Source of the DNA: Clostridiaceae bacterium
Lineage (GTDB): Bacteria > Bacillota > Clostridia > Saccharofermentanales > DTU023
Length of the DNA: 64,000 nt
NCBI GenBank assembly: GCA_012518845.1
Contig: JAAYRJ010000052.1
Span: 14,381-78,380 of the forward strand
Direction: 5' to 3'
Shown here: positions 1 to 34,997 of the stretch, piece after piece
Numbering within the stretch: the first letter of the stretch is position 1
How the letters are laid out: each line of letters opens with the position of its first letter
Program-made: the position numbers and the translations under genes
The notes under the pieces: model-generated
The model's database searches: none
The model's input: only the letters and a program-made list of their open reading frames with translations
Told to the model about the DNA's origin: nothing

Positions 1-140
1 AAGAGATTTAAACACTCTAAAACTCTTGCTAATTAAGCAATAAATATAACAAAATCAATATAATAATTTTACGAATTTACATTTCACATTTTTGACTATA
101 TCAAGTATCATAAAAGTGTATTGCCCATAAATAAATATGT

Positions 141-240
141 GAAAGCGTACCTAGGGATCTAAGATTAATTTCCAGGACCAAGCGGTACCGATATGATAAT
201 CAATAATTCGTATTACACCCGAGGGATAAAAGCCCAGATG
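141..240 (+). promoter_or_regulatory. ykkC-family (subtype 2, probably PRPP-sensing) riboswitch aptamer in the purC leader
   Basis: Contains CTAGGGATC (151-159), GGACCAAGCGG (175-185) and ACACCCGAGGGATAAAAGCCC (215-235). These match the three conserved ykkC cores (CUAGGGUUCCG / GGUCCGAGAG / ACACGGAGGGAnAAAAGCCCGGGAG) with pocket-segment changes. It sits directly upstream of the purine operon and overlaps a terminator. Confidence 0.6.
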
Positions 241-280
241 GACAGGTTTCACAGACTGTTCATAGGCTTTTTTTGTTTTT
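232..280 (+). terminator. Intrinsic terminator acting as the riboswitch expression platform
   Basis: GCC(232-234)/GGC(265-267) plus ATGGACAG(238-245)/CTGTTCAT(256-263) form the stem, followed by T7-G-T5 (268-280). The 5' arm reuses the GCCC of the aptamer 3' core. Confidence 0.6.
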
Positions 281-311
281 AGAAATATATTGTCAAAATC
301 TGGGAGGGAAA

Positions 312-992
312 ATGAAACTACTATACAAAGGCAAAACCAAAGATGTTTATGAGCTAGACGCCGAAACAGTACGTTTGCAGTTTAAGGATGATGTAACTGG
401 TAAAGATGGTATCTTTGATCCTGGGGCAAATGAAATAGCACTGTCAATCGAAGGAATTGGCAAAAGAAATTTAGCTGTCTCAACTTTGTTTTTTGAAAAA
501 TTAGCTACTAACAATATTCCTACCCACTTTATAAGTTCAGATCTTGAAGCAGGTACAATGGATGCAAAAAAATGTACGCCATTTGGCAAAGGCATTGAGA
601 TCATTCAAAGAAAATATGCGGTCGGCTCTTTTTTGCGTCGTTATGGTCTTTATGCAACAGAAATGATGCCACTTAACAATTATGTAGAGATAACCTTAAA
701 AGATGACAAGAGACAAGATCCACTTATAACCGAAGATGGCTTAGTTGCGTTAAATATTTTAACTCATACACAATACGACTCTTTAATAAACCAAACTAAA
801 CAAATTGTCGATATAATAGATAAGTTTTTAGAAGCTAAAAACTTACAATTGATTGATATTAAATTGGAATTTGGTATTGATACTGAGGATAATGTCCTCT
901 TAACTGACGAAATTTCTAGTGGTAATATGAGAGTTTACCGAAATGGAGAAAAACTAGAGCCAGCAGAATTGACAGATTTAATTCTTGCTTAG
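312..992 (+). CDS. purC: SAICAR synthase (phosphoribosylaminoimidazole-succinocarboxamide synthase)
   Basis: MKLLYKGKTKDVYE N-terminus typical of PurC. The ATG at 312 is preceded by GGGAGGG (302-308). The ORF-track TTG start at 273 lies inside the terminator T-tract. Confidence 0.93.
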   Translation: MKLLYKGKTKDVYELDAETVRLQFKDDVTGKDGIFDPGANEIALSIEGIGKRNLAVSTLFFEKLATNNIPTHFISSDLEAGTMDAKKCTPFGKGIEIIQRKYAVGSFLRRYGLYATEMMPLNNYVEITLKDDKRQDPLITEDGLVALNILTHTQYDSLINQTKQIVDIIDKFLEAKNLQLIDIKLEFGIDTEDNVLLTDEISSGNMRVYRNGEKLEPAELTDLILA

Positions 993-1015
993 TTTTATCA
1001 TAAAAGGAGATCGCA

Positions 1016-1498
1016 ATGAAAGTTGCTATTATAATGGGCAGTAGTTCAGATTATGAGATTGCTCAAAAAGCTTTTCCGCTTTTAGAAAAATTTAACATCC
1101 CATATTTTGTTAGAGTTATTTCAGCTCATCGAGCTCTTGAGATGCTACAAGAATGTGTATCAGAGTTTGAACAAGAAAATGTAAAATGCGTCATTGCTTT
1201 AGCAGGTAAGGCTGCTCATTTACCAGGTGTAGTAGCTGGAATGACAGTTTTACCAGTGATTGGTGTACCAATCAAGGGCTCAGCTTTTTTAGGACTTGAT
1301 TCATTAATGTCTATTGTTCAAATGCCTAAAGGGGTACCGGTTGCTACAGTTGCGGTTGACGCAGCAGACAATGCTGCTATTTTAGCAGCTCAAATCCTTG
1401 CTATTAACTCCAACGACATTACACAAAAATTAAAAGTTTACAAACAAGAATTAGCTGAACATGTCGTTCAACAAGACAAGGAAATCAATACTATATGA
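1016..1498 (+). CDS. purE: N5-CAIR mutase, class I PurE
   Basis: SAHR and AGKAAHLPGV motifs are class I type rather than the class II SAHK/AGRSNGLG type. RBS AAGGAGA lies upstream. Confidence 0.92.
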   Translation: MKVAIIMGSSSDYEIAQKAFPLLEKFNIPYFVRVISAHRALEMLQECVSEFEQENVKCVIALAGKAAHLPGVVAGMTVLPVIGVPIKGSAFLGLDSLMSIVQMPKGVPVATVAVDAADNAAILAAQILAINSNDITQKLKVYKQELAEHVVQQDKEINTI

Positions 1499-2793
1499 GT
1501 GGAATAGTAGGTGTGAGTACTGATAAATCAGTTGTAGCTGCCCATCCTATTATTTATGGGGTATATGCATTACAGCATCGTGGACAGGTAAATACAGGTG
1601 TTGCTTTGTTAGATAATAATCAGTTGGTTGTTAGAAAAGGCTCTGGACAGATTAATGCTTTATTTCCAGATAATATTTCAATGAATATACCAGGAGATAG
1701 GGGTCTAGGTCACGTCAAATATGGCGAGTATTTACAATATGATATTGAACAACCGATATTGCCAAAAGAATATAAAATTAATGGAACAAATTGTCTGATT
1801 ACAATAGATGGCAATATTTTAAACAAAGACTTTTCTTTACACGATTTGGCTCTAGCTTTAAATTCATCTTTGCAAACAGGCAAAGAATATCTGAGTAAAT
1901 TGCAAGGTGCTTTTGCAGGAGTTTATCTGGATCCTTATAAAATGATAGGTTTTCGAGATCCGGTTGGTTTAAAACCACTGTATGCAGGTAAGTTTGATCA
2001 TGGTTATATTTTAGCCTCGGAAACTTGTGCAATTGATTCTACGGGTGCAGATTTAATTCAATCCGTAGACAATGGTGAAATGGTTGTAATTCAAAAAGAC
2101 AAGATTGATTTTTATCGTTACACAGAAAAATTACCAAAGAAAAAATGTATCTTTGAACTTGTTTATATCTCAAGACCGGATAGCTATTTTGATGGATTAT
2201 CTGTCTATCAAGCTAGAAGTCAGATGGGCAAGATTTTATATGAAGAATATCCAACAAGTGCTGATATTGTTATGGGTGCACCAGACTCAGGTCTAATAGC
2301 AGCTGTAGGATATGCTGAAGAATCTAAAATTCCCTATAAAGATGGTATTATAAAAAACAGATATGTAGGTAGAACCTTTTTAACTACAGATGAAAGTGAA
2401 CGCAAAACAGATATTTTTATTAAATTTAATCCAATTAAGGAAGTATTAAGAGATAAAGAAATTGTTTTAGTTGATGATTCAATAATCAAAGGTTCAACTA
2501 TCAAACGAACTATAAAAATGTTAAGAAATGCTGGCGCAAAAAAAATTCATGTTCGAATTTCTTCACCAATTTTGAGGTTCCCTTGCAATTTATCTATGGA
2601 TATTCCAAATGTTAATGACCTAATGGCACATCAAAAAGATGTTGAAGAAATTCGCCAAGAAATTAACGCAGATTCACTTTATTATCTTTCGATGGAGGGT
2701 TTACTTAAAGCTTGTGGACAAGATGATTTTTGTGATCACTGTTTTACAAATAATTATCCAATCAAACCATATGAGGAGGGACTATGGGTTTAA
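1495..2793 (+). CDS. purF: Amidophosphoribosyltransferase (Fe-S type) with a degenerate Ntn glutaminase site
   Basis: LQHRGQ, RDPxGxxPL, PRTase loop VLVDDSIIKGST, and cluster Cys residues (KKC, FPC, CDHC) are present. The start ATG overlaps the purE stop (ATATGA). The protein begins MSGIVG, not MCGIVG. Confidence 0.9.
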   Translation: MSGIVGVSTDKSVVAAHPIIYGVYALQHRGQVNTGVALLDNNQLVVRKGSGQINALFPDNISMNIPGDRGLGHVKYGEYLQYDIEQPILPKEYKINGTNCLITIDGNILNKDFSLHDLALALNSSLQTGKEYLSKLQGAFAGVYLDPYKMIGFRDPVGLKPLYAGKFDHGYILASETCAIDSTGADLIQSVDNGEMVVIQKDKIDFYRYTEKLPKKKCIFELVYISRPDSYFDGLSVYQARSQMGKILYEEYPTSADIVMGAPDSGLIAAVGYAEESKIPYKDGIIKNRYVGRTFLTTDESERKTDIFIKFNPIKEVLRDKEIVLVDDSIIKGSTIKRTIKMLRNAGAKKIHVRISSPILRFPCNLSMDIPNVNDLMAHQKDVEEIRQEINADSLYYLSMEGLLKACGQDDFCDHCFTNNYPIKPYEEGLWV

Positions 2794-3836
2794 CATATAA
2801 GGATTCTGGTGTAGATAAAGAAGCTGGCTATAAACAAGTTAAATTAATCAAAGACATGCTCAAGTCGACTTATACTTCTGGTGTTATTACTGACATAGGT
2901 GGATTTGGTGGTATGTTTCGTTCACCTCAATCAGAGTATGAAAAACCAATTTTGGTTTCGGGTACAGATGGGGTTGGTACAAAATTAGATTTAGCTTTTA
3001 GGACCGATATTCATAATACAGTTGGTATTGATTGCGTTGCCATGTGTGTTAACGATATTTTATGCCAAGGGGCAAAACCATTGTTTTTCCTAGATTATAT
3101 TGCAACAGGCAAATTAATTCCTACAAAGATGGCAGAAATTGTTTCTGGTGTAGTTGAAGGTTGCAAGCAATCAGGCATGGCTTTAATTGGTGGTGAAACT
3201 GCTGAAATGCCGGGCATATACCAAGAAAATCATTATGATTTAGCTGGTTTTGCAGTTGGAATGGTTGATGAAGCAAAAGTTATCGTACCAGAGCGGGTAC
3301 AGGCCGGTGACAAATTAATAGGTCTCCCATCTAGTGGTATTCACTCTAATGGTTTTTCGCTCGTAAGAAAAATAATTTTTGAGCTGCAAAATAAGAGTTT
3401 AGAAGAGTATATACCGGAATTAGATCAAACTTTGGGCAAAAATCTTTTGACGCCAACTAAAATTTATGTAGATGCTGTTTTACCATTAATTGATAAATTT
3501 GATTTGCATGGTATCTGTCATATTACAGGCGGTGGTATTATCGAAAATTTACCAAGAGCTTTAGGACAAAATCAAACAGCTCTTGTAGATCTTTCAGATT
3601 TTGAAATTCCAGCCATATTTAAGCTACTAGCCAAGTGGGGCAAGATAGAAACTAAAGAAATGTTTAATACATTTAACATGGGTATTGGTATGATTTTGAT
3701 TGTAGGAGAGGAAGATTATTCTGCCGTAACTGACGATCTAAATGAACGTCAACAGGATTTCGTTGAAATGGGAGAAGTACTATTAGGTGACGAAGATATC
3801 GAAATTAAATATTCTGACGATTGCTTAGAAATTTAA
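2784..3836 (+). CDS. purM: AIR synthase (phosphoribosylformylglycinamidine cyclo-ligase)
   Basis: YKDSGVDKEAGY, GTDGVGTK and GGETAEMP motifs. The start overlaps the purF end, after GAGGAGGGA. Confidence 0.93.
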   Translation: MGLTYKDSGVDKEAGYKQVKLIKDMLKSTYTSGVITDIGGFGGMFRSPQSEYEKPILVSGTDGVGTKLDLAFRTDIHNTVGIDCVAMCVNDILCQGAKPLFFLDYIATGKLIPTKMAEIVSGVVEGCKQSGMALIGGETAEMPGIYQENHYDLAGFAVGMVDEAKVIVPERVQAGDKLIGLPSSGIHSNGFSLVRKIIFELQNKSLEEYIPELDQTLGKNLLTPTKIYVDAVLPLIDKFDLHGICHITGGGIIENLPRALGQNQTALVDLSDFEIPAIFKLLAKWGKIETKEMFNTFNMGIGMILIVGEEDYSAVTDDLNERQQDFVEMGEVLLGDEDIEIKYSDDCLEI

Positions 3837-3853
3837 TAAAGAAAGTCATTATT

Positions 3854-4474
3854 ATGAAAAAAATTGCCGTGTTGCTTTCGGGTGGTGGATCTAATTTACA
3901 AAGTTTAATTGACAGTCAAAAAGTTGGCTATTTTAAAGGTGAAATAAAACTTGTAATCTCAAATAATAAAAATGCTTTTGGGCTCGAAAGGGCCAGCAAT
4001 AACAACATAGAAGCTATCTATCTCAACAAAGAAGATTATCCGAATAATGAACAATATGATCGTCAAATTTTGAGCCTATTTAAGCAGTATAAAATTGATC
4101 TGGTTGTATTAGCAGGATATCTAAGATATGTAACGCCTGTTTTGCTTGAAGCCTATCCCAATCGTATTATTAATATCCATCCTTCTTTATTACCAGCCTT
4201 TGGAGGCAAGAATTTTTATGGCTCTAAAGTACATGAAGCTGTTTATCAAAGAGGTGCAAAAATTTCTGGAGCAACTGTTCATTTTATTGATGAGGGCCAA
4301 GATACTGGACCGATTATTATTCAAGAGAGTTTGCCGTTAGATCAAGATTGGCAACCAGAAGAAATCGGTCAAGCAGTACTAAAAATAGAACATAAAATAC
4401 TACCTTTAGCAGTTAAATATTTTTGTGATGAGAAATTAACAGTTAAAAATAAGCGTGTTTATATCAAAGCTTAA
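3854..4474 (+). CDS. purN: GAR formyltransferase
   Basis: KIAVLLSGGGSNLQ, HPSLLPAFGG and GATVHFIDEGQDTGPII. The ATG at 3854 is preferred over the TTG at 3821, which overlaps the purM end. Confidence 0.92.
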   Translation: MKKIAVLLSGGGSNLQSLIDSQKVGYFKGEIKLVISNNKNAFGLERASNNNIEAIYLNKEDYPNNEQYDRQILSLFKQYKIDLVVLAGYLRYVTPVLLEAYPNRIINIHPSLLPAFGGKNFYGSKVHEAVYQRGAKISGATVHFIDEGQDTGPIIIQESLPLDQDWQPEEIGQAVLKIEHKILPLAVKYFCDEKLTVKNKRVYIKA

Positions 4475-4529
4475 TTTCATAATTTAAACAATAAATCACT
4501 GAGCAAATGATCAAAAATCGGAGGCAAAA

Positions 4530-5786
4530 ATGAAAGTATTAATAATAGGGAGTGGTGGGCGTGAACACGCTATAGCGGATAGTTTGATTAAAAATGACAG
4601 AATAGAAACTGTTTATTTTTTAACTCATAATGGTGCTGCAAAAGGCAAATTAAAAAATGCCAATTTCCCTGATAATAGTAAAAATTCGATTGATCAATTT
4701 TTGTTGAAGTATCCAGTAGAGCTTGTGATAGTGGGTCCAGAACAACCACTTTCTGAAGGCATAGTTGATTATATTCAAGAAAAAGGTATTAAAGTTTTTG
4801 GTCCACATAAAAAGGCTGCCAGATTAGAAGCGAGTAAAGCTTTTGCCAAACGATTTATGGAGGAACAAAATATTCCAACTGCTAAATATATTGAGTATGA
4901 CAATTATGAATCAGCTCTTAATGGTCTAGATAATTTTGAATTTCCTTTAGTAATTAAAGCCGATGGCCTTTGTGCAGGCAAAGGTGTTGTTATTTGCCAA
5001 AATTATTCTGAGGCCAAAAAAGCTTTAGCCGATATGTTTAAAGAAAAGATTTTTGGTGACCAAGCCCAAACAGTTATTATAGAGGAATTTTTGTCTGGAT
5101 TTGAAGCCTCTTTACTTTGTTTTGTTTCAGGTTCCAAAATATACCCTTTAGACACTGCTATGGATTATAAGAAAATTTATGAAAATGATCTTGGACCAAA
5201 TACTGGTGGTGTAGGGATGATATCACCTAATCCATACTGGAACAGTAATTTACAATCTCAATCGGATATTATTATTAAAAAAATAGAAAATGGTCTAAGC
5301 CAGAGAGGTCTTGAGTATAGTGGAATATTATTTATTGGATATTTGATTGAAGATGGAAAAATCTATGTTCTAGAATTTAATGTGCGTTTTGGTGATCCTG
5401 AAACAGAAGCTCTTTTGCCACGTCTTCATTCTGATTTATTAGAGAATATAGAAGAATCAATTAATCGTTTGCCTGTTAATTTAAAGTTTGATAATAAAGT
5501 AGCATTGGCAACTTTATTAGTTTCAAAAGGTTATCCCGCTTCATTTGAGAAAGGCAAAGTTATTTCAGGCTTAGAAGATTGTGACCCTGATATTAAGATT
5601 TATCACAATGGGACAAAAAATATTGATGATAAAATTTTAAGTAACGGTGGACGAGTACTGTCTATAGTCGCAGTTAAAGATACATTAGAAGAGGCAAGAG
5701 AAGCTGTTTATCAAAATATTCCTAAAATTTCATTTGAAAATATGAGCTATCGAACAGACATTGGCCAACTCAAAAATTATGATTAA
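4530..5786 (+). CDS. purD: Phosphoribosylamine-glycine ligase (GAR synthetase)
   Basis: MKVLIIGSGGREHA N-terminus, ATP-grasp core and GDPETE motif. Confidence 0.94.
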   Translation: MKVLIIGSGGREHAIADSLIKNDRIETVYFLTHNGAAKGKLKNANFPDNSKNSIDQFLLKYPVELVIVGPEQPLSEGIVDYIQEKGIKVFGPHKKAARLEASKAFAKRFMEEQNIPTAKYIEYDNYESALNGLDNFEFPLVIKADGLCAGKGVVICQNYSEAKKALADMFKEKIFGDQAQTVIIEEFLSGFEASLLCFVSGSKIYPLDTAMDYKKIYENDLGPNTGGVGMISPNPYWNSNLQSQSDIIIKKIENGLSQRGLEYSGILFIGYLIEDGKIYVLEFNVRFGDPETEALLPRLHSDLLENIEESINRLPVNLKFDNKVALATLLVSKGYPASFEKGKVISGLEDCDPDIKIYHNGTKNIDDKILSNGGRVLSIVAVKDTLEEAREAVYQNIPKISFENMSYRTDIGQLKNYD

Positions 5787-20225: not shown

Positions 20226-21548
20226 TTAATCTTCATCATCAGATTCGGAGTCAGGTTCTTCGGATTCAGTTTTTGCTTTTCTTTCTTGTAGTTCTTCAGC
20301 GGTTAAAATATGGAGAAGAATTGTTTGAATTCGGTTTTTATTCATTTCAGTTATTTCGAAGCGCAAATCCTCATAGTAAATGAAATCATTTTCCTCAGGT
20401 ACACGGTCAAATTCACCATAAAGAAAACCACCAATTGAATCAAAGTTATCATCTGGAATTTCAAAATCAAAATATTCATTTACTTCTTCGATGTTTAGAC
20501 TAGCATCAATGAGATGATCATGTTCATTGATTGTTACAATTTTTTGATCTTTTTCATCATACTCATCCTCAATTTCTCCAATGATTTCTTCGACTAAATC
20601 TTCAATCGTCACTAACCCAGCAGTTCCGCCATATTCATCTAAAACAATTGCTATATGAATGTGCTTTTGACGCATAGTTTTGAGTAAGTTGGTAACGTTT
20701 TGCAACTCATATGTGAAATAAGGTTTAAACATGATCTCATTCAAATCGAAGTCGCGACCGTTTAGCTCTAAAGTTGCAAAATCACGTACATGGATAAATC
20801 CTATAACTTTGTCTATATTACCATCACACACTGGAATTCTGGAGTAAGCAACTTCACGGAACAATTGCTTTAATTCAGAATAAGAAATATCCGAATTGAT
20901 TGAAATAATATCTGGACGCGGGGTCATTATAGTTCTTACTGGAGTATCTTTGAAATCAAAAACATTTTCCAACATTTCTTTTTCGTCTTCTTCAAGTACA
21001 CCCTCTTCATGACCTACATTTAGGAGTGTAATTAGTTCCTCCTGGGTAACAAAAGGCTTATGCTCATCTTTTGAACTGTCTAATAATTTAGCCAAAAAAT
21101 TGGTTATTTTTAAAAGTAAAAAAGTGAGGGGTGTCAATAGCCTGACTATAAATTGCACACTAGGAGCTACTGACAATGCGATATTTTCAGAATTTTTTAC
21201 CGCGACTGACTTGGGGGTAATTTCACCAAAAATTAAGACTAACAATGTAACTATACCAGTTGCAATCCCAACCCCAGTATTACCAAATAATTCAATGCTT
21301 AAAGAAGTTGCGATTGAAGAAGCCAAAATATTTACTAAATTGTTACCTACTAAAATTGAACTTAATAGTTTATTTGGATCTTCAATTAAAGATAGAACAA
21401 TTTTAGCTTTTTTATTACCATCTTCTGATAAATGTTTCATTCGGATGATATTAACAGATGTTAAGGCTGTCTCTGAAGATGAAAAAAATGCAGATAGTAC
21501 AAGGCAAATAATGAAAATAATTAGCTGTACCGTATGAGAAGTTTCCAG
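20226..21548 (-). CDS. CorC/HlyC-family protein (DUF21 - CBS pair - CorC_HlyC) with a probable CTG start
   Basis: CBS pair and C-terminal transporter-associated domain are present. The in-frame sequence upstream of the first ATG (21440) encodes LIIFIICLVLSAFFSSSETALTSVNIIR, the canonical first DUF21 helix. GGAG (21556-21559) lies 7 nt before CTG (21546-21548). There is no ATG/GTG/TTG between the upstream stop and 21440. Confidence 0.75.
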   Translation of the reverse strand: METSHTVQLIIFIICLVLSAFFSSSETALTSVNIIRMKHLSEDGNKKAKIVLSLIEDPNKLLSSILVGNNLVNILASSIATSLSIELFGNTGVGIATGIVTLLVLIFGEITPKSVAVKNSENIALSVAPSVQFIVRLLTPLTFLLLKITNFLAKLLDSSKDEHKPFVTQEELITLLNVGHEEGVLEEDEKEMLENVFDFKDTPVRTIMTPRPDIISINSDISYSELKQLFREVAYSRIPVCDGNIDKVIGFIHVRDFATLELNGRDFDLNEIMFKPYFTYELQNVTNLLKTMRQKHIHIAIVLDEYGGTAGLVTIEDLVEEIIGEIEDEYDEKDQKIVTINEHDHLIDASLNIEEVNEYFDFEIPDDNFDSIGGFLYGEFDRVPEENDFIYYEDLRFEITEMNKNRIQTILLHILTAEELQERKAKTESEEPDSESDDED

Positions 21549-21742
21549 ATATATGCTCCTTTTCGAGCCAAAATAATTCTATTTAACTTAATCTAGATTA
21601 ATATTTAAGCAAAGCAGAACTTCAGTATAATCAATGTTAAAATCAAATTATTAAGGCATTTTGTTACTTTCTATTATTTAGCTTAATTTTTTTCTGTTAT
21701 TTTTGTCAAGTTTCGTGCATTTTTTAATTTTTATTAGAAGGG

Positions 21743-21771
21743 TTGAATAGTAATACAAATTCTGATAGTAT
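21743..21771 (+). promoter_or_regulatory. Putative sigma-A promoter of the his operon
   Basis: TTGAAT (21743-21748), 17-nt spacer, TAGTAT (21766-21771), about 95 nt upstream of hisZ. Confidence 0.35.
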
Positions 21772-21867
21772 TCTTTTATCGCTTTACCACTTTAGCGAGA
21801 TAAAGTAAAATTGTTATCAGAAAACATTTGTTATAGATTAATGCTATTATTTTTATTGGAGAAAAAG

Positions 21868-22680
21868 ATGTCTAATCAAGTAATTTTAGAAAAATTTAAT
21901 TTGGCGATTGAGTATATGACTTTGCTTGCTGAGTATAACTATAAATTAATCGATCTTAATATGATTGAACCTTTTCGAATTGAGGACAAAGAATTTCAAC
22001 CTAGTAGTCTTGTATTTGAGAGAAATGAAACTATGTATGCTATTCGAAGTGACTGGACAAGGTCACTGTTAAATTATAATGATAGTTATTTTCTTGATGA
22101 TCGTATGTTTTGTTATTTTGGAACTGTTATTCGTGATTATCAATCTTTTTATCAGGCGGGTGTTGAACTTTACGAACCAAGCGAAGTAGAAATGCTAAAA
22201 AGTATTCAAATTCATTTAGACTTTGTTAAAAATAAAATAAGAAATCAAGGTAAAAATATAACGGCTTTAATTCTAAATAATGATCGATTTATTGATTTGT
22301 TTATTGAAAAATATGATTTGTCGGAAAGTATTCGTACTTTGATTTATGAAAAAAATCTGAGTGAATTAAAAAATCAGCTTGAGCCTGATAATCCTCTCTT
22401 AAAAATTCTACAAGCAAGAGTTAGCGAGCAGTATACTTTGCTAGCGAGCGAATTTTCGAATACAGAAGAATTGCAAACTATTGAAAAAATCAAAAAAATA
22501 GCAGATCAAGAAAATCTTAAGTTTATGATAGACTTGTCGTTTAAATCACCTCAGGGCTATTACAATGGTTTATATTTTCAGGCTTTCATAAATTATCATA
22601 CCCCAATTTTAAGTGGTGGTGAGTACGATAATCGGGCTTTTGGTATTGCCCTCAATATTGAAGATGGAGGACTTTTATGA
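21868..22680 (+). CDS. hisZ: ATP phosphoribosyltransferase regulatory subunit (short HisZ)
   Basis: HisRS-like motifs (IRSDWTRS, YQAGVELY, GGEYDN). It is translationally coupled to the short-form hisG. The ATG at 21868 follows GGAG. Confidence 0.75.
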   Translation: MSNQVILEKFNLAIEYMTLLAEYNYKLIDLNMIEPFRIEDKEFQPSSLVFERNETMYAIRSDWTRSLLNYNDSYFLDDRMFCYFGTVIRDYQSFYQAGVELYEPSEVEMLKSIQIHLDFVKNKIRNQGKNITALILNNDRFIDLFIEKYDLSESIRTLIYEKNLSELKNQLEPDNPLLKILQARVSEQYTLLASEFSNTEELQTIEKIKKIADQENLKFMIDLSFKSPQGYYNGLYFQAFINYHTPILSGGEYDNRAFGIALNIEDGGLL

Positions 22681-23282
22681 TTACTGTTGCCTTGCCTAAA
22701 GGTAGATTATTAAAAGAAGTTATTGCATATTTAGAGTCCTGTGACCTAAAAAAATATGCAGATAAACTTGATCCAAAATCACGACTACTCTTTACGGATG
22801 TTGATGGAATCCGTTTTGTTTATGCTAAAGGCAGAGATGTGCCTACCTATGTTGAATCAGGAATAGCCGATTTAGGTTTTATTGGTTCTGACATTATTAC
22901 TGAAAACAAATTTGAATTGTTAAATGTGTCGCAACTGCCATTTGGCTATTGTCGTTTTTCATTATGTGGTTTACCAGGTGTTAAGCAATTTAAGAGTGTA
23001 GCCACAAGCTTTTACAATATTTCTTTTCAATATTTTAAAAAGAAAAAACAGCAAGTTTCATTTATCCATTTACACGGCTCGGTTGAGCTTGCACCTTTAT
23101 TAGGTTTAGCAGACGGAATCGTCGATATTGTCCAAACAGGTAGCACTTTAAAAGCAAATGGTTTGATTGAGTATGAAACGATTATGGATGTCCAGGCTTG
23201 TTTAATTGCTAATAGGCAAACATTTTATACAAAAGAAGCTGAAGTTTATCCTTTTTTGAAAAAGTTAGGAGTTTTTGAATAA
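22677..23282 (+). CDS. hisG: ATP phosphoribosyltransferase, short form
   Basis: ITVALPKGRL N-terminus and DIVQTGSTLKANGL motif. At 201 aa it is the HisZ-dependent type. Confidence 0.92.
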   Translation: MITVALPKGRLLKEVIAYLESCDLKKYADKLDPKSRLLFTDVDGIRFVYAKGRDVPTYVESGIADLGFIGSDIITENKFELLNVSQLPFGYCRFSLCGLPGVKQFKSVATSFYNISFQYFKKKKQQVSFIHLHGSVELAPLLGLADGIVDIVQTGSTLKANGLIEYETIMDVQACLIANRQTFYTKEAEVYPFLKKLGVFE

Positions 23283-24541
23283 TGAAATTAGAGTTACCTG
23301 AAATTCAGGCTGCTAGAGAATATCTTGCTCAGTTTTCCCAAGTTAAAGAAGCCGAAGATCAAGAATCTTTAAGCCAAGTAATGGATATTCTGCAAAATGT
23401 TCGCAAGTATGGTGATAACGCTTTATTTGAATATACAGAGAAATTTGATGGTCAGAAATTAGAGAAGTTTAAAGTTCCAGAAACGTGGCTCGAGCAAAGT
23501 TATCTTGCACTGGAGCCAGAGTTGCGTCAAGCATTGGAATTTATTAAGCAGCGAATTCAAAAGTACGAAGAACAAATAAAATATAAAGACAAAGAATTAA
23601 CTGAATTTAAATATGTCTATCATCCGATTGAAAAAGTAGGTTTCTATGTCCCAGGCGGCACAGCTTTATATCCATCATCTGTACTTATGAGTATTATTGC
23701 TGCTCAGGTAGCCGGCGTGCCCAAGATCTATGCAGTTACACCAACTTTTGAAGAAAATAATATTACATTTGCAACTCTTTATATTTGCGGCGTGACGAAT
23801 GTTTATCAAATAGGTGGAGCTCAAGCAATTGCAGCTTTAGCCTATGGCACCGAGAGCATTCCTAAAGTCGATAAAATTGTAGGCCCAGGAAATCGTTATG
23901 TAGCTTTAGCAAAACGATTAGTCTTTGGTGAAGTTGGAATTGATTCTATAGCTGGACCTAGTGAAATTTTGCTTTATATTGATGAAAATGTTGATCCAGA
24001 ATCAATTACATTAGATATTTTTGCTCAAGCAGAACATGATCCAGATGCTAAAACTTTTTTATTAGCAGAAAATAAAAAGATTTTGAAAGATATACATGCT
24101 TTGATTGTGAAAAAACTGCCTGAGCAAAAACGTAGTGATATTATTACTCAGTCAATTAATAATAATCATTATTCCATTATTGGTGAAGCAAAAGATTTAA
24201 TTGCTATTATTAATCAGATAGCACCAGAGCATGTTTCGATCCAACATGCAAATTCAGACGAAATAATTTCAAAAATCCATTATGCTGGTGCAATTTTTAA
24301 GGGCAATTACTCGCCAGAGGCCATAGGCGATTATGTGGCAGGACCATCCCATGTCTTACCAACAAGTGGTAGTGCCAGATTTAGTCATGGTCTTAATGTA
24401 AATGATTTTTTGACTAGTCATGCAATTATAGATATTGAACCTGAAACTTATCAGCAAATTGCTCCGTATGGGATCAAAGTCGCATATGCGGAAGGACTTT
24501 ACGCACATGCCGAAAGTTTAGAGGCAAGATTAAAAGAATAA
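23282..24541 (+). CDS. hisD: Histidinol dehydrogenase
   Basis: IAGPSEIL, QAEHD and PEHV motifs. Confidence 0.94.
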   Translation: MKLELPEIQAAREYLAQFSQVKEAEDQESLSQVMDILQNVRKYGDNALFEYTEKFDGQKLEKFKVPETWLEQSYLALEPELRQALEFIKQRIQKYEEQIKYKDKELTEFKYVYHPIEKVGFYVPGGTALYPSSVLMSIIAAQVAGVPKIYAVTPTFEENNITFATLYICGVTNVYQIGGAQAIAALAYGTESIPKVDKIVGPGNRYVALAKRLVFGEVGIDSIAGPSEILLYIDENVDPESITLDIFAQAEHDPDAKTFLLAENKKILKDIHALIVKKLPEQKRSDIITQSINNNHYSIIGEAKDLIAIINQIAPEHVSIQHANSDEIISKIHYAGAIFKGNYSPEAIGDYVAGPSHVLPTSGSARFSHGLNVNDFLTSHAIIDIEPETYQQIAPYGIKVAYAEGLYAHAESLEARLKE

Positions 24542-24582
24542 TATTTTATTGAATAAAATACCTAGTGAAAGAGAAGAACAAT

Positions 24583-25572
24583 ATGATAATCATGAATCGT
24601 AATACCAGTCCCATCAAGCCTTTGACAGATGAACAAATTTTTAATGCTGTGAAAAAAACAAATTATAATCAATATCCAGATCAGGAACGAATAAATTTTA
24701 TTAATTTATATGCCGATTATTTTGGCTTTAATCCAGACAATATAGAAGTAGCTAATGGCTCTGATGAATGGATTCAAAAATTGATTATAACGCTTGGTAA
24801 AAACGGGGTAATGTCTTTAAATCCCGATTTTGTGATGTATCAAATCTATACAGAACAATTTTTGCCAGAAATTTATTTTGTTAATGCTGAGCCTGATTTT
24901 ACCTTTGATTTTGATAAAGTAATTGTTGCCATCAAAGCTAAAAAACCTTCATTATTTTTAATATCTAATCCACAAAATCCAACCGGTACGATGTTTAGTA
25001 CCCAAGATTTGCAACGTTTAGCTGATGCTATGGCAGAGGTTGATGGTTATCTTGGCTTAGACGAGTGTTATATTGATTTTGCTAAAGATTACGAACGACC
25101 AAAGGGAAAAAATATTATTATTCTCAGAACTTTAAGTAAAGTTTATGGGATGGCAGGCTTGCGTGTAGGGATGGCAATTGCGGAAAAAGAAACTTTGGAT
25201 ATAATCACTCAAATAAATCATCCTTACCCTTTAAATTCACTAGCGTTAAATTTAGCCAGTGAATTGTTTTCGGATAAAAAAGCTTTACAAAAATTCAAAA
25301 ATTATCAATTTGAGAGTAAAGCTAGATTAGAGACAGCCTTAGATCAAGTTTCAGATTTAATGGAAATAAAAGAATCTTATACTAATTATATTTTTACTTA
25401 TGGTGATGCTGCAATAGATATGGCAAACTTTTTATTGGATAAAGGATTTTTGAGTCGCATCTATGATGTACCGATCTTACAAAATGCAGCTCGTTATTCA
25501 ATTATCAAATTAGAAGAATATCAAGCATTAAATGAGGCAATTATAGAATGGAGAAATCAGTATGTTGAGTAG
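24583..25572 (+). CDS. hisC: Histidinol-phosphate aminotransferase
   Basis: SNPQNPTG and LSKVYGMAGLRVG motifs. The start is uncertain (GTG 24565, ATG 24583 or ATG 24592). Confidence 0.88.
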   Translation: MIIMNRNTSPIKPLTDEQIFNAVKKTNYNQYPDQERINFINLYADYFGFNPDNIEVANGSDEWIQKLIITLGKNGVMSLNPDFVMYQIYTEQFLPEIYFVNAEPDFTFDFDKVIVAIKAKKPSLFLISNPQNPTGTMFSTQDLQRLADAMAEVDGYLGLDECYIDFAKDYERPKGKNIIILRTLSKVYGMAGLRVGMAIAEKETLDIITQINHPYPLNSLALNLASELFSDKKALQKFKNYQFESKARLETALDQVSDLMEIKESYTNYIFTYGDAAIDMANFLLDKGFLSRIYDVPILQNAARYSIIKLEEYQALNEAIIEWRNQYVE

Positions 25573-26143
25573 GAAAAGAGAAACGCTAGAAACTAAAATC
25601 GAATTGAAATTAGCCGAGCAAACAGATACAAATGAAAGATCGGAAATAGATACAGGTATAGGTTTTTTTGATCATATGCTTACTTTGTTGGCATTTCACT
25701 CCAATTTATTTTTATCGGTTAAGGCTGATGGTGATTTAGAAGTAGATTTTCACCATACAGTTGAAGATACTGGTATTGTTCTTGGTGAATTAATTTATGA
25801 GCTATATCAAAGCAAAAAGTCTTTTGGACGTTATGGTTTTTTCTACTTGCCGATGGATGAATCTTTAGCAAGAGTCACACTTGATTTATCTGGACGACCA
25901 GGTTTTTATTTTAACTGTAATTTTGCTAGTGAAAAAGTTGGAGAGTTTGATACGGAACTTGTTAAAGAGTTCTTCAATGCGGTGGCAATGAATGCGAAAA
26001 TGACTTTGCATATTGATTTGTTAAAAGGTGGAAATAGCCATCATGAAATTGAAGCTGTCTTTAAGGCATTTGGTCGTAGCCTGGCTATTGCCTTAGAAAC
26101 CAAAACAGGTGGAGTGCCATCTTCCAAAGGGGTGATTGCATGA
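25562..26143 (+). CDS. hisB: Imidazoleglycerol-phosphate dehydratase
   Basis: GIGFFDHML, HHTVEDTGI and GGNSHHEIEA motifs. Monofunctional (193 aa). Confidence 0.94.
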   Translation: MLSRKRETLETKIELKLAEQTDTNERSEIDTGIGFFDHMLTLLAFHSNLFLSVKADGDLEVDFHHTVEDTGIVLGELIYELYQSKKSFGRYGFFYLPMDESLARVTLDLSGRPGFYFNCNFASEKVGEFDTELVKEFFNAVAMNAKMTLHIDLLKGGNSHHEIEAVFKAFGRSLAIALETKTGGVPSSKGVIA

Positions 26144-26847
26144 TTGATATTATTCCAGCAATAGATTTAATCGAAGGTCAAAGTGTTAGATTAGAACAAG
26201 GCGATTATCAAACAAAATCCTTAATGCCAAGAACAGCTAAAGAAGCGATAAAATTTTACAATCAATTTGAACAAGTTAAAGGGATTCATATTATTGATCT
26301 TCTAGCAGCTAAGGAAAAAAAGGCAAAAGAGATGGATTTGATTTCAGAACTTAGGGCTTTGACAGATTTGCCAATACAAATTGGTGGTGGTTTGAGAAAT
26401 GAAGAAACAATTCGGTTTTACGATAGTAAAGGCATTGACTACTTTATTTTAGGTACAAAAGCAATAACAGATTTTGCTTGGCTAGAAGAGATGACAAACT
26501 TATTTCCAGCCCGAATTATAGTTGGCATTGATGCTAGAGACGATTATATTTATATAAATGGCTGGACAGAGAATTCCGGTATTCAAATTCCAGATCATTT
26601 AGCAAAAATTGAAAAACTTAATTTGCAAGGAATTATTTATACAGATATCGCTAAAGATGGGATGAATAAAGGTCCCAATTTTGAAAAAACTGCCGCCTTA
26701 GCTAAAAATACAAGACATAAAGTAATTGCTAGCGGTGGAGTACGTGATAATTCAGATTTGAAAAAGTTAGCAGCACTTGAAATACCAGCGGCAATTGTTG
26801 GTAAAGCAGCTAACACAGATGCTTTTTGGCAATCAATTGTTGATTAG
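26140..26847 (+). CDS. hisA: ProFAR isomerase
   Basis: IIPAIDL, QIGGGLR and ASGGV motifs. Its ATG overlaps the hisB stop (ATGA), leaving no room for hisH. Confidence 0.92.
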   Translation: MIDIIPAIDLIEGQSVRLEQGDYQTKSLMPRTAKEAIKFYNQFEQVKGIHIIDLLAAKEKKAKEMDLISELRALTDLPIQIGGGLRNEETIRFYDSKGIDYFILGTKAITDFAWLEEMTNLFPARIIVGIDARDDYIYINGWTENSGIQIPDHLAKIEKLNLQGIIYTDIAKDGMNKGPNFEKTAALAKNTRHKVIASGGVRDNSDLKKLAALEIPAAIVGKAANTDAFWQSIVD

Positions 26848-26856
26848 AGGGCAGAC

Positions 26857-27624
26857 ATGATAGAGAAAACAAGAAAAATTCTTCCTTGTCTTGATATAAG
26901 AAATGGGAAAGTAGTTAAAGGTGTAAATTTTGAAAATATTAGAGAAATGGGCGATCCAGTCGAGTTGGCAACCAAATATGGAGCGGCAGGAGCTGATGCC
27001 CTAGCTTTTTTAGATATAACAAAAACTAAAGAGAAGCATGGATTTTATCTAGATCTAATTTCTGAAATTACAAGCAACATTGAGATTCCGCTATTTGTGG
27101 GTGGAGGTATTAGCACGCTTAAAGATATTAATTTAATATTAAATGCTGGTGCCAGCAAAGTTAGTATTGCTTCTGCAGCTCTAACAAATCCTAACTTTAT
27201 CTCAGATGCAGCTTCTGAATTTGGACACGACAAAATAATTATTGCATTAGATGTTGCCCAAGATTTAGCTGACAATAAATATTATGCTTATACTCATGGA
27301 GGTCAGAAAAAAACAGATTTTGAAGTGTTTGAACTAATTGAAAAATTTGACCAAATTGGAGTGTCAGCATTTTTGATTACGGGAATTTCATTTGATGGCT
27401 CAAAATCTGGCTTTGACCTTGCTTTTTTTAAAGAAGCAGGAAAAAGAACAAATACAACTTTAATCGCAAGTGGTGGTGCTGGAAAAATTGAAGATTTCGT
27501 TGATTTATTTCAAAAAACAAATGTTGAATATAGTTTAGCAGCTTCTATTTTTCATCAAAACACAGTAAATATTAGAGAGCTAAAACAAAATTTAGCTTCG
27601 AAAAACATTAATGTTAATCTGTAA
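26857..27624 (+). CDS. hisF: Imidazole glycerol phosphate synthase cyclase subunit
   Basis: ILPCLDIRNGKVVKG, VGGGI and ASGGAG motifs. The catalytic Asp equivalents (D13, D132) are present. Confidence 0.93.
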   Translation: MIEKTRKILPCLDIRNGKVVKGVNFENIREMGDPVELATKYGAAGADALAFLDITKTKEKHGFYLDLISEITSNIEIPLFVGGGISTLKDINLILNAGASKVSIASAALTNPNFISDAASEFGHDKIIIALDVAQDLADNKYYAYTHGGQKKTDFEVFELIEKFDQIGVSAFLITGISFDGSKSGFDLAFFKEAGKRTNTTLIASGGAGKIEDFVDLFQKTNVEYSLAASIFHQNTVNIRELKQNLASKNINVNL

Positions 27625-27679
27625 TTTCTCTCTAGAAAAAAGCAAAATTTCCAAACTAATTAAAAGCGAAAGGATTATT

Positions 27680-28303
27680 ATGCAACCTGATTTTACAAAA
27701 AATAATGGCTTGTTATCTGTTATTTTACAGGACTTTGATACAAAACAAGTTTTAATGAATGGCTTTATGAATGAAGAAGCCTATAAATTAACCAAACAAG
27801 AAAATGTTGTTTGGTTTTATTCTAGATCAAAACAACGTCTTTGGAAAAAAGGGGAATCAAGTGGCCATGTTCAACATGTTGTAGAAATGACACTTGATTG
27901 TGATCAAGATGCCCTTCTAATTCAAGTTGTTCCGGCTGGACCAACTTGCCATCTTGGCAATACCAGTTGTTTTGATGATCCTTATTTTAATCTGGAAATT
28001 CTAGAAAAAACTATTCAAGATCGCATAAAAAATCCTAAAGAGGGTTCCTATACAAAATATTTGTTGGAACAAGGTTTAGATAAAATTTTGAAAAAAAGCA
28101 GTGAAGAAATGACCGAAACTATAATCGCTAGTAAAAATCAGGATAAAAATGAGATAATAGCAGAAGCATCGGATTTACTTTACCATGTAATTTTATTGTT
28201 AAATTCTCAAAAAATTTCTTTGAATGATGTCAAAGAAAATTTAGCAAAAAGACATGGCAAGGTACAGTCTTACAAGCGTCGAAAAGAAATTACAAATTGG
28301 TAA
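27680..28303 (+). CDS. hisI: Bifunctional PR-AMP cyclohydrolase / PR-ATP pyrophosphatase
   Basis: WFYSRSKQRLWKKGESSGH and DCDQDALL (HisI part), and a C-terminal HisE helix bundle (EASDLLYHVILLL). The ATG at 27680 follows AAAGGA. Confidence 0.9.
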   Translation: MQPDFTKNNGLLSVILQDFDTKQVLMNGFMNEEAYKLTKQENVVWFYSRSKQRLWKKGESSGHVQHVVEMTLDCDQDALLIQVVPAGPTCHLGNTSCFDDPYFNLEILEKTIQDRIKNPKEGSYTKYLLEQGLDKILKKSSEEMTETIIASKNQDKNEIIAEASDLLYHVILLLNSQKISLNDVKENLAKRHGKVQSYKRRKEITNW

Positions 28304-31074: not shown

Positions 31075-34000
31075 CTACTTAAAGTAATCAACAGCGGATT
31101 TAAATAATCCAAGATCATATTCACCGACGACATTTTTATACAAATGCTTGCCAATTCTTTCGCTATGTCCCATCTTTCCAAAAATTCTACCATCTGGTGA
31201 AGTAATACCTTCAATAGCATAAATGGAGCCGCTTGGATTGTATTCTATTTCATAAGATGGTTTACCAGCCATATCTACATATTGTGTGGCAATTTGACCG
31301 TTTTTGATTAATTCATTTAATGTTGCTTCATCTGCTATAAATCTTCCCTCGCTATGAGCTATTGGTACTTGATAAATTTTGCCAAGCTCCGCATTTGCTA
31401 ACCAAGCTGACTTATTTGAGACAACTTTTGTTCGCACAATTTTTGATTGATGGCGCTGGATTGTATTATAGGTGAGAGTAGGTGCGTTAGGTTTTAGGTC
31501 AACAAATTTACCATAGGGGAGTAAACCCAGTTTGATTAAAGCTTGAAAGCCGTTGCCAATTCCCAAAATTAGGCCATCTCTATTTTCTAATAAATCTTCT
31601 ATTGCCAACCTTATTTGAGGTTTACGTAGGAAGGTTGTAATAAATTTTGCTGCACCTTCAGGTTCGTCACCTGCAGATGCCCCGCCAGAAAGAAAAATAA
31701 TTTGACTTTCCTTAATTTTTTGAGTCAGTTTTTGCACAGATTCTTGAATAGAGTTAGGTTTTAAGTTTTTGATAATGAAAATCTCAGGTTCAGCACCTGC
31801 TTGAAGCCAAGCTTTTGCAGCTTCATATTCACCATTTGTACCTGGAAATACAGGTAATAATACTTTTGGATTTTCAATTGTTACATTAGCTTTTAAAGTT
31901 TCATTTAGCTTGCAAGAGATCTCTGGAATGGATGTTTTGTTTTCTGGAGCTTTTGTCCTAAACACAGATTCTAATTTATTTTCATACAGTTTTTCTAACT
32001 CATCGATTTCCAGAATTGTGTTTTGGAAGCTGAGCTGATATTTGCCCGTTGTTTGTCCTAGCTTTTTTACAACAAATTGCTCACTGTTGAAAGCAGATAA
32101 ATCTAATGTGTCTTTGAGCTCTATCACAAAAGATCCATAATTATATTTAAATAGCTCTGTTTGACAAATGTCTTGCTCAAATTCAAAACCAACTCGGTTC
32201 CCAAGTGTCATTTTAAAAATTGCTTCAGCAATACCGCCATGTCCAGGCGTATATGCCGCTAAAACTTCACCATCCCTAATTGCATTGACTATATATTCAA
32301 ACAATGCTAATTGTGAAATTTTTTCAGGTAAATTATTATTTTCAAATGGTTCTAATACATAGACTTGATGCTCTGGCTTTTTAAATTCTGGCGATATAAT
32401 ATTTTTAGAATAATCTGTTGTCACAGCAAAGGAAACTAATGTAGGTGGAACGTCTAAATGCTCAAATGAGCCACTCATGGAGTCTTTACCGCCAATAGCC
32501 GCAATTTTATAATCCATTTGCGCTTGGAAAGCACCTAGCAAGGCAGCAAAAGGCTTACCCCAACGTTTGGGATCATTTTCTAGTCGTTCAAAATATTCTT
32601 GAAAGGTTAGGTAAATTTCATTAAGATCTGAACCTGCCGCTATCAGCTTAGCTATTGATTCCACTACAGCTAAGTAAGCACCGTGATAGGGACTTTTTTC
32701 TGATATATAAGGATTAAAGCCAAAGGCCATTAAAGAACAATTTTCTGTTTCATGGTTTTCAACTGAAATTTGATGTGCCATTGCTTGAATGGGAGTTCTT
32801 TGGTATTTCCCTCCATAAGGCATCAAAATTGTACCAGCCCCTGCAGTAGAATCAAATTGTTCTGCCAGACCACGTTTTGAGCAAACATTTAAATCAGTTA
32901 CTAAACCTTCCATATTTGCTTTAAAATCAGATTGGGGTGCAGATTTTTGATAAGTCTGAGGCTTAACAGTTTCAATCTGAATATGTTTTTGAGCACCGTT
33001 GGAATCCATAAATTCACGTGAAAGATCAACTATTTTTTGATCGCGCCAATGCATTACTAGGCGTGGCTCTTCAGTAACTACTGCAATTACTGTTGCTTCA
33101 ACATTTTCACTTTCTGCTAACTTAATAAAACGATCTGCATCTTCTGGAGCTACGACAACAGCTAACCTTTCTTGGGATTCGCTAATTGCTAATTCGGTCC
33201 CATCTAAACCTTTGTATTTTGTTGGAACCAGATCCAAATTAATTTTCAGCCCAGCTGCTAGTTCACCAACTGCCACCGAGACACCACCTGCTCCAAAGTC
33301 ATTGCAACGTTTTATTAATTGTGAAACTTGTTTATTTCTAAACAATCTTTGCAATTTTCTTTCTTCTGGCGCATTACCTTTTTGTACTTCTGCACCTGAA
33401 GTTTCAAATGAGTCGACAGTATGTGATTTTGAAGAGCCTGTAGCTCCACCAAGACCATCACGTCCTGTTCTGCCACCTATTAAAATTACGACATCATCTG
33501 CAACTGGAGTTTCGCGTCTGACATTTTCTGCTGGGGTTGCAGCTACAACAGCACCAATTTCCATTCTTTTAGCCGCATAGCCAGGATGATATAATTCAGC
33601 AACTTTGCCGGTAGCAAGACCAATTTGGTTACCGTAGGAACTGTAGCCATCGGCAGCAACGGTGGTAATTTTTCTTTGTGGTAACTTTCCTTCAAATACA
33701 GGTTTATTATCTAAGGGATTAGCTGCCCCAGTTACACGCATGGCAGCGTAAACATATGAACGTCCAGATAAAGGATCTCTAATAGCACCACCCAGACAAG
33801 TTGCTGCTCCACCAAAAGGCTCAATTTCGGTTGGGTGATTATGGGTTTCATTTTTAAATAATAATAGCCATTCTTCTAGCTCACCATTTATTTCAATATC
33901 GATTTTCACCGTACAAGCATTAATTTCATCAGAAACATCAAGCTTGTCTAATTGACCATTTTCTCTTAAGAATTTTGCTACAATCGTACCAAGATCCATT

Positions 34001-34791: not shown

Positions 34792-34850
34792 ATTTGTCTC
34801 CAGTCTTCATAAAATGTCTGAGCTTACTAAGTATTAGTAATTGCAGTACA

Positions 34851-34879
34851 AATATAACAAACTTTGATAGTGTGAACAA
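34851..34879 (-). promoter_or_regulatory. Putative purL promoter
   Basis: On the minus strand: TTGTTC (34879-34874), 17-nt spacer, TATATT (34856-34851). The leader is about 50 nt with no obvious riboswitch. Confidence 0.3.
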
Positions 34880-34997
34880 TTAAAAAAATTGTTTATAGAG
34901 TTGGATAAATTCAAAAAAACTGTTTAGATTTTTGCTGTTTGGGCAGAAAATAGAAAAGAAAATAGTCTCAAAGCTAAAAAACAGCTAATATACAAAA

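Follow-up and report, generated by a model that had tools for sequence, protein, structure and literature searches.

A predicted singlet PRPP riboswitch (ykkC subtype 2b) in the leader of the purCEFMND operon of an uncultured low-GC bacterium

Which ligand does the leader of a de novo purine biosynthesis operon in an uncultured bacterium sense, and does binding switch the operon on or off? The question arose from an earlier note on a 64-kb stretch of DNA (the whole of which is referred to below as the window), where a ykkC subtype-2 ON-riboswitch of the PRPP type was read from the letters at 141-280, ahead of purCEFMND. Members of the ykkC family share most of their conserved nucleotides and differ in ligand, and the answer depends on a small number of positions, on the genes downstream and on the layout of the expression platform. 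The analysis presented here leaves us highly confident that positions 138-280 (+) hold a singlet PRPP riboswitch (ykkC subtype 2b) that is predicted to bind PRPP and to control transcription of purC-purE-purF-purM-purN-purD.

Results

The purC leader carries an aptamer of the ykkC family

The three ykkC core blocks reported in the earlier note, CTAGGGATC (151-159), GGACCAAGCGG (175-185) and ACACCCGAGGGATAAAAGCCC (215-235), are all found at exactly those positions when the sequence is read again, and with them the complete ykkC scaffold (P1/P1a/P1b, P2 and P3, with the cores CUAGGG, CC-AG-G and ACACC...GGGA-AAAA-CCC). The element proposed at 141-280 is thus real, but its 5' boundary had been set too far in, the aptamer starting at 138-140 with the 5' strand of helix P0, (U)GUGAAA. 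Its full extent is 138-253 (+), a four-way junction of helices P0, P1, P2 and P3; together with the terminator that follows, the riboswitch occupies 138-280 (+) of the purC leader.

A covariance-model search, which the earlier note had named as a check, was performed with a dedicated model and with Rfam. The dedicated model (R1) was built from 22 diverse PRPP aptamers taken from the published Stockholm alignment of 257 such aptamers (Sherlock 2018, PMC5912903, supplementary file 2); its structure combines the published secondary structure with the crystallographic P0 helix, projected from the T. mathranii row (alignment A1). R1 aligns full-length to 140-257 with a clearly significant score (82.5 bits, E 1e-21), and this is its single match in the 64-kb window. 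For comparison, one genome per species was scanned for the 3' half of the motif with position 96 left free, yielding 120 loci, and R1 aligned 101 aptamers from 99 of these, plus the one from the window (alignment A2). The 101 related aptamers score between 56 and 116 bits, a range that includes the window aptamer, a low scorer in the lower fifth of the family.

The Rfam 15 scan of the whole 64 kb at gathering thresholds returned no RNA family (no tRNA, rRNA or other riboswitch). At E<=10 within positions 1-400, the sole credible Rfam match is Guanidine-I (RF00442), which aligns full-length to 140-242 with 35.4 bits (E 7e-5 for 400 nt searched), the gathering cut-off of this family being 63 bits. 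To read this outcome we used as controls 18 loci with PRPP-type aptamers, including that of Anaerococcus rubeinfantis (NZ_LN913016, our locus L041) from the published PRPP alignment. None of the 18 was reported to match a PRPP- or ppGpp-specific Rfam 15 family, and a ykkC match at the gathering threshold was absent in 16 of them, NZ_LN913016 among these. The silence of Rfam therefore reflects a gap in the library, and the empty gathering scan was rejected as evidence against the aptamer.

The remaining two controls were called as Guanidine-I above the gathering score, namely L022:7864-7968 from Caldanaerobacter (78 bits) and L015:2922-3092 from Thermotalea (68.6 bits); both lie ahead of a nucleobase permease gene followed by purE. 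Since no PRPP-specific family was reported for any control, misannotation of purine-context aptamers as guanidine riboswitches is likely. At its curated threshold Rfam 15 misses the purC-operon aptamer and labels some of its purine-associated relatives "Guanidine-I", so that automated pipelines will miss or misname leaders of this kind.

Secondary structure

The free minimum-energy fold of 136-256 yields P0, P1, P2 and P3 (-27.9 kcal/mol), and 24 of the 27 pairs of the model form in the window aptamer, the exceptions being C146/C189, A164/A168 in a vestigial P1b, and C220/U239. The 5' strand of P0 (138-145, +) comprises U138-A143/A144 together with A144 and G145, the equivalents of T. mathranii A5 and G6, and pairs with 247/248-253; the core of the helix is 140-143 with 248-251, extendable to 138-253. 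The P0 signature nGAAAG...YAGGUUUCRC is present as UGAAAG at 140-145, identical to T. mathranii positions 1-6, and CAGGUUUCAC at 243-252. P1 (region 146-189, +) pairs 147-151 with 184-188 above the C146/C189 mismatch at its base. Inside it lie the CUAGGG core (151-156), P1a/P1b, which is very short (159-176), and the pocket strand ACCAAGC, to which G182 and C183 belong. The P2 hairpin (190-214, +) pairs 190-196 with 208-214 around an 11-nt loop. The region 215-246 (+) runs from the ACA junction through lower P3 (C218-G241 and C219-G240 paired, C220/U239 unpaired), upper P3 (223-225 with 233-235, loop AUAAAAG) and the S-turn A236-G237-A238 to the tail with A242, A244, G245 and G246.

Across A2 the helices are well supported: standard pairs occupy 96% of the cells, against 30-45% with the partners slid, and changes on both sides occur at 20 of 27 pairs, values that none of 500 shuffles reached, with the proviso that A2 was fitted to the model and these numbers consequently lean towards it. 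Covariation is strong in P2, where all six pairs show changes on both sides. Nowhere does the window aptamer depart from a position conserved in at least 90% of the 98 aptamers that do not precede gltB, a comparison in which the search pattern itself fixed part of the 3' half and left the 5' two-thirds and position 96 unconstrained.

The published 2b consensus, nGAAAGYGYRYCU-A-GGGUUCC...GnCCRAGYGRYRCR...YACACCR-nAGGG-AYAAAAGCCCAGR-nGGR-YAGGUUUCRC (PMC5912903), reads in the window as UGAAAGCGUACCUAGGGAUCU...GACCAAGCGGUACC...UACACCCGAGGGAUAAAAGCCCAGAUGGACAGGUUUCAC. Six departures fall at generic positions: two in GGGUUCC (here GGGAUCU), C189, C220, and, within the 3' tail, A253 and C256. The combination of GGGAUCU with a tiny P1b is shared with published Anaerococcus PRPP aptamers, and a metagenome scan for closer relatives returned Anaerococcus-type aptamers only.

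The ligand pocket and the nucleotide at position 96

The residues that contact PRPP and metal have been described for the crystallised T. mathranii aptamer (Knappenberger et al. 2018, PMC6031431), where A5 and G6 contact the beta-phosphate of PRPP and metal M2. Every PRPP-contacting residue of that structure is identical in the window aptamer: A5/G6 correspond to A144/G145, G48/C49 to G182/C183, C75 to C216, C77/C78 to C218/C219, A101 to A242, A103 to A244 and G104/G105 to G245/G246. The earlier note had remarked that the leader deviates from guanidine-I in the segments lining the pocket, and this is borne out by C183, which replaces the guanidine-I marker A46 (and by the sub-threshold Rfam score). 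A pyrimidine in place of A46, C49 in T. mathranii, is the rule for subtype 2b (PMC6031431); the corresponding column of the family holds C in 55 and U in 42 cases.

The distinction between PRPP (2b) and ppGpp (2a) aptamers is carried by G96, which the primer sequences of Knappenberger et al. (PMC6031431) place as the middle G of CCCGGGAGG. More than 97% of PRPP aptamers have this G, whereas ppGpp aptamers show A, C or U in its place or lack the position, and the single change G96A flips the PRPP/ppGpp specificity by about 40,000-fold (PMC6031431). Through CCCGGGAGG, T. mathranii G96 maps to window G237, so that the S-turn holds the G of 2b and not the substitution or gap of 2a; C216, the long-range partner of this G, is present as well. 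In 2a aptamers, which lack this G, the junction C is available for pairing with the guanine of the ligand. The preference of the earlier note for a PRPP-type over a ppGpp-type aptamer is thus sustained by G237 and by a pocket otherwise identical to that of T. mathranii.

In the independent sample of A2 the column is G in 97 of the 98 non-gltB aptamers, nearly all of which have a purine context; the three that precede gltB (L002, L036 and L043) all have A. Where enough downstream sequence was available, purine-related genes follow in 92 of 95 matches, counting the window's own, and the other three precede gltB; the purine genes comprise purE, purC, purD, purL, purF, purB, purK, nucleobase permeases, xpt and codA. 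The G96 rule thus held in a set of species-representative genomes collected independently. R1 itself does not discriminate PRPP from ppGpp aptamers, the gltB-associated loci scoring 76-84 bits, and the subtype call for the window therefore relies on three things: G237, an otherwise intact pocket, and the genes downstream.

Several loci of the sample deserve mention in their own right. A 3-nt segment CCC-GAG-GG with A in the G96 column occurs in L002, L036 and L043, and also in L105; the first three, which precede the gene for the glutamate synthase large subunit, are probably ppGpp (2a) riboswitches. Two of these four records carry labels that fall beyond the usual range, the Firmicutes: Armatimonadota and "Bacillati bacterium ANGP1". 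Three MAG contigs, assigned by their labels to Sutterella, Desulfovibrio and Patescibacteria (L033, L061 and L066), combine a PRPP-type aptamer with pur genes; they may be mis-binned Firmicutes contigs or real non-Firmicutes occurrences.

The operon and its promoter

All six genes named in the earlier note were matched by NCBIfam models: purC (312-992), purE (1016-1498), purF (1495-2793), purM (2784-3836), purN (about 3854-4474) and purD (4530-5786), all on the + strand. The extent of the regulated operon, 312-5786 (+), is further based on the gene calls of an identical metagenome contig, an 86.7-kb contig from a biogas fermenter that encodes an identical PurC and for which the same protein set was called. 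De novo purine biosynthesis is, with purine transport/salvage and codA, among the gene contexts of the PRPP class. The DNA is of low GC content (33-35%); the best identities of the Pur proteins to the comparison loci are 40-62%, and the nearest pur operons are Tissierellia- or Peptoniphilaceae-like.

On the same metagenome contig, 300 nt separate purC from the end of the upstream gene, which encodes an MFS transporter; this end corresponds roughly to window position 11, and the intergenic leader accordingly covers about 12-311. It contains a candidate sigma-70-type promoter at 83-111 (+) (TTCACA, 17-nt spacer, TATCAT; 10 of 12 matches in a consensus scan), from which transcription would start near 118-120, some 20 nt ahead of the aptamer. 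A purC ribosome-binding site, GGGAGGG, can be read at 302-308 (+). Directly upstream of the candidate -35 element lies a possible PurR box: TTTTACGAATTTAC at 68-81 (+), including TTTTACGAATTT at 68-79 (+), bears a loose likeness to the PurBox consensus AWWWCCGAACWWT; no second box was seen.

The expression platform and its predicted logic

A simple terminator scan gave an empty result, now superseded by folding, which reveals an intrinsic terminator at 228-280 (+); the scan missed it because a 10-nt loop and an internal loop exceed its limits. In the lower stem AAAAGCC (228-234) pairs with GGCUUUU (265-271), and in the upper stem 238/239-245 pairs with 256-262/263; the 10-nt loop contains the 3' strand of P0, and the hairpin (-16.9 kcal/mol in the fold of 226-280) is followed by the tail UUUUUUUGUUUUU, with a U tract up to 280. 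The ribosome-binding site at 302-308 falls beyond this hairpin, which leaves it unsequestered in the folds.

The terminator shares 228-245 with the aptamer, a stretch that runs from the loop and 3' strand of P3 through the S-turn into the ligand-binding tail, and in the folds upper P3, lower P3 and the tail cannot coexist with it. It had been proposed that the 5' arm of the terminator begins with the GCCC of the aptamer; the overlap with P3, GCCC included, stands, but the arm begins at A228 in the P3 loop and not at G232. With P3 acting in silico as the anti-terminator, the ON-switch logic suggested at the outset agrees with the folds: aptamer and terminator exclude each other, and ligand binding should therefore prevent termination, which makes the purC-leader element, as modelled, an ON switch. 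The terminator state has -17.5 kcal/mol and the listed pairs of the aptamer alone have -11 kcal/mol, by nearest-neighbour energies that leave tertiary and ligand energy out of account. The same layout, in which the CCC of P3 forms part of a downstream hairpin with a U-rich tail behind it, was found in 67 of 100 relatives by a crude automated test.

The predicted course of events is as follows. At low PRPP the 3' part of the nascent leader would fold into the terminator (228-271 plus the U tract), and RNA polymerase would halt before purC. At high PRPP this substrate of PurF would bind the pocket where P0 stacks on P3, formed by A144, G145, G182, C183, C218, C219, G237, A242, A244, G245 and G246. 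Its binding would stabilise P3 and P0 and so deprive the terminator of its nucleotides, and the resulting read-through would amount to feed-forward activation. What is gained is the prediction of RNA-level PRPP feed-forward control of purCEFMND in an uncultured biogas-reactor bacterium, the value of which lies mostly in annotation.

A singlet aptamer, and purL outside its reach

About half of the published PRPP aptamers are arranged in tandem with a guanine aptamer. The earlier note had seen none here, and indeed the Rfam guanine aptamer model (Purine, RF00167) has no match at E<=10 in 1-400, an interval that reaches back to the end of the MFS gene near 11. Detection works, as the Purine aptamer was found directly upstream in 10 of the 18 PRPP-type controls (73-86 bits). 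The stretch of some 20 nt between the predicted transcription start and the aptamer would also be too short for a guanine aptamer. The leader thus has no upstream guanine aptamer sharing its expression platform, and the purC operon is left without an RNA-level guanine OFF input.

The purL gene, also said to have no comparable leader, lies apart at 31075-34791 (-) and encodes a 1238-aa single-chain FGAM synthase (TIGR01857, 1804 bits). It is monocistronic and preceded by a 206-nt AT-rich leader (34792-34997, -), in which R1, run with filters off over 34600-35200, scores at most 4 bits, and for which Rfam, run over 34750-35050, gives nothing credible and neither a PRPP nor a guanine aptamer. This places purL outside the riboswitch regulon; the pathway may thus be regulated unevenly, as the earlier note had put it.

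Other arrangements occur in the comparison set. Five Tissierellia-like relatives (L003, L011, L050, L051 and L060) carry a PRPP aptamer of their own directly before purL, and one contig of an uncultured Tissierellaceae (L079) has two PRPP aptamers 2.2 kb apart, at 2856-2967 and 5095-5206, one before a nucleobase permease gene plus purC and the other before purE-purF-purM. The window also holds a histidine operon (hisZ-G-D-C-B-A-F-IE, 21441-28303, +), whose pathway likewise consumes PRPP; an intergenic region of 370 nt lies ahead of it, and hisH was not seen between hisB and hisA within 21441-28303. The 370-nt region has no Rfam match at E<=1 and hence no T-box.

Alternative readings of the leader

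The subtype-2 consensus is almost wholly common to 2a and 2b, and R1 scores aptamers in gltB context as well as it does that of the window, so one may ask whether the leader is a ppGpp riboswitch, or a dual sensor, through which the alarmone would turn on the purine synthesis genes. A single G96A change suffices to flip the specificity, and even the wild-type T. mathranii PRPP aptamer binds ppGpp weakly (Kd 91 uM; PMC6031431). What speaks against a ppGpp switch is G237 itself, as this position is reported never to be G in 2a (PMC6031431), and the only aptamers with A at position 96 in our sample precede gltB. The operon behind the leader, moreover, serves de novo purine synthesis and not branched-chain amino acids, glutamate synthase or natA. 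Switching on purine synthesis in a stringent response would also conflict with what is known of ppGpp physiology in Firmicutes. Taken together, these points make a ppGpp-responsive leader most unlikely. The case for guanidine, which the only matching Rfam family would suggest by its full-length alignment and the common overall fold, is practically negligible: the score falls far under the gathering value, the marker A46 is C183, and the downstream genes encode purine enzymes rather than guanidine carboxylase or efflux proteins. The Rfam model also cross-matches the purine-associated aptamers of Caldanaerobacter and Thermotalea, and a weak match is therefore what one would expect of a subtype-2 member.

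It is a different matter whether the aptamer still works as a PRPP sensor. A decayed relic, or another subtype-2 variant (2c/2d-like or with some other ligand) in which mismatches impair or retune PRPP sensing, would leave the terminator to act constitutively or to respond to something other than PRPP, and the score in the lower fifth of the family, the minimal P1b and two letter combinations without precedent among the 98 non-gltB aptamers (C189, C220 and U239 being letters new to their columns) could be read in this way. Yet every invariant and ligand-contacting nucleotide is intact, pairing is also missing in about 5% of the family where P1 closes and in about 15% at the corresponding place in lower P3, and an equally small P1b is found in published Anaerococcus members; the overlap of aptamer and terminator is preserved and the operon behind them is complete. 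Published 2c contexts, in the summary given within PMC9881157, are nucleotide hydrolase genes and not pur genes. We consider such loss or change of function very unlikely. A narrower version, by which the two lineage-specific mismatches C146/C189 and C220/U239 flanking the pocket, with the singlet layout, retune the aptamer towards a much weaker PRPP threshold or towards appreciable cross-sensing of ppGpp or pGpp, strikes us as similarly far-fetched; if it were true, PRPP would not be the sole signal to which the organism couples purine synthesis. A functional singlet PRPP riboswitch accordingly remains our preferred reading.

Comparison with known systems

With Guanidine-I (subtype 1, RF00442) the window aptamer shares the P1/P2/P3 scaffold, the CUAGGG and GGGAUAAAAGCCC cores and the anti-termination ON switch. 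It differs in having C183 for A46, ACACC rather than ACACG in the junction, the P0 extensions and an unrelated regulon, and with 35.4 bits against a cut-off of 63 it falls outside that family. The ppGpp riboswitches of subtype 2a (Sherlock et al. 2018 PNAS, PMC6003355) are closer, having in common with it the fold, P0, most conserved nucleotides and the ON switch; in contrast to the G of the window, their position 96 is non-G or absent, and their gene contexts are branched-chain amino acid, glutamate synthase (gltB) and natA/ABC transporter genes (PMC6003355), not a purine operon. The tandem guanine-PRPP riboswitches, which form an IMPLY gate, share the PRPP aptamer and the terminator logic but possess the guanine aptamer that is missing here.

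The closest counterparts are the singlet PRPP riboswitches, exemplified by those upstream of F. ignava purC and H. modesticaldum purB (Sherlock et al. 2018 eLife, PMC5912903), for the second of which the mechanism proposed here, with aptamer and terminator excluding each other and the bound ligand preventing termination, has been demonstrated experimentally (PMC5912903). The window aptamer agrees with this class in the four-way junction of P0, P1, P2 and P3, in the pocket residues, in the 5' GAAAG and 3' GGUUUCAC extensions and in the ON layout with a terminator overlapping P3, and with the F. ignava example in having purC as the first gene. It differs by the C/C mismatch at the base of P1 and the C/U in lower P3, by a very short, Anaerococcus-like P1b, by a terminator with an internal loop and a 10-nt loop, and by its host, an uncultured low-GC bacterium represented in a biogas fermenter metagenome. 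Overall, the riboswitch of the purC operon is an ordinary, routine addition to the published PRPP class, and it leaves what is known of that class unchanged.
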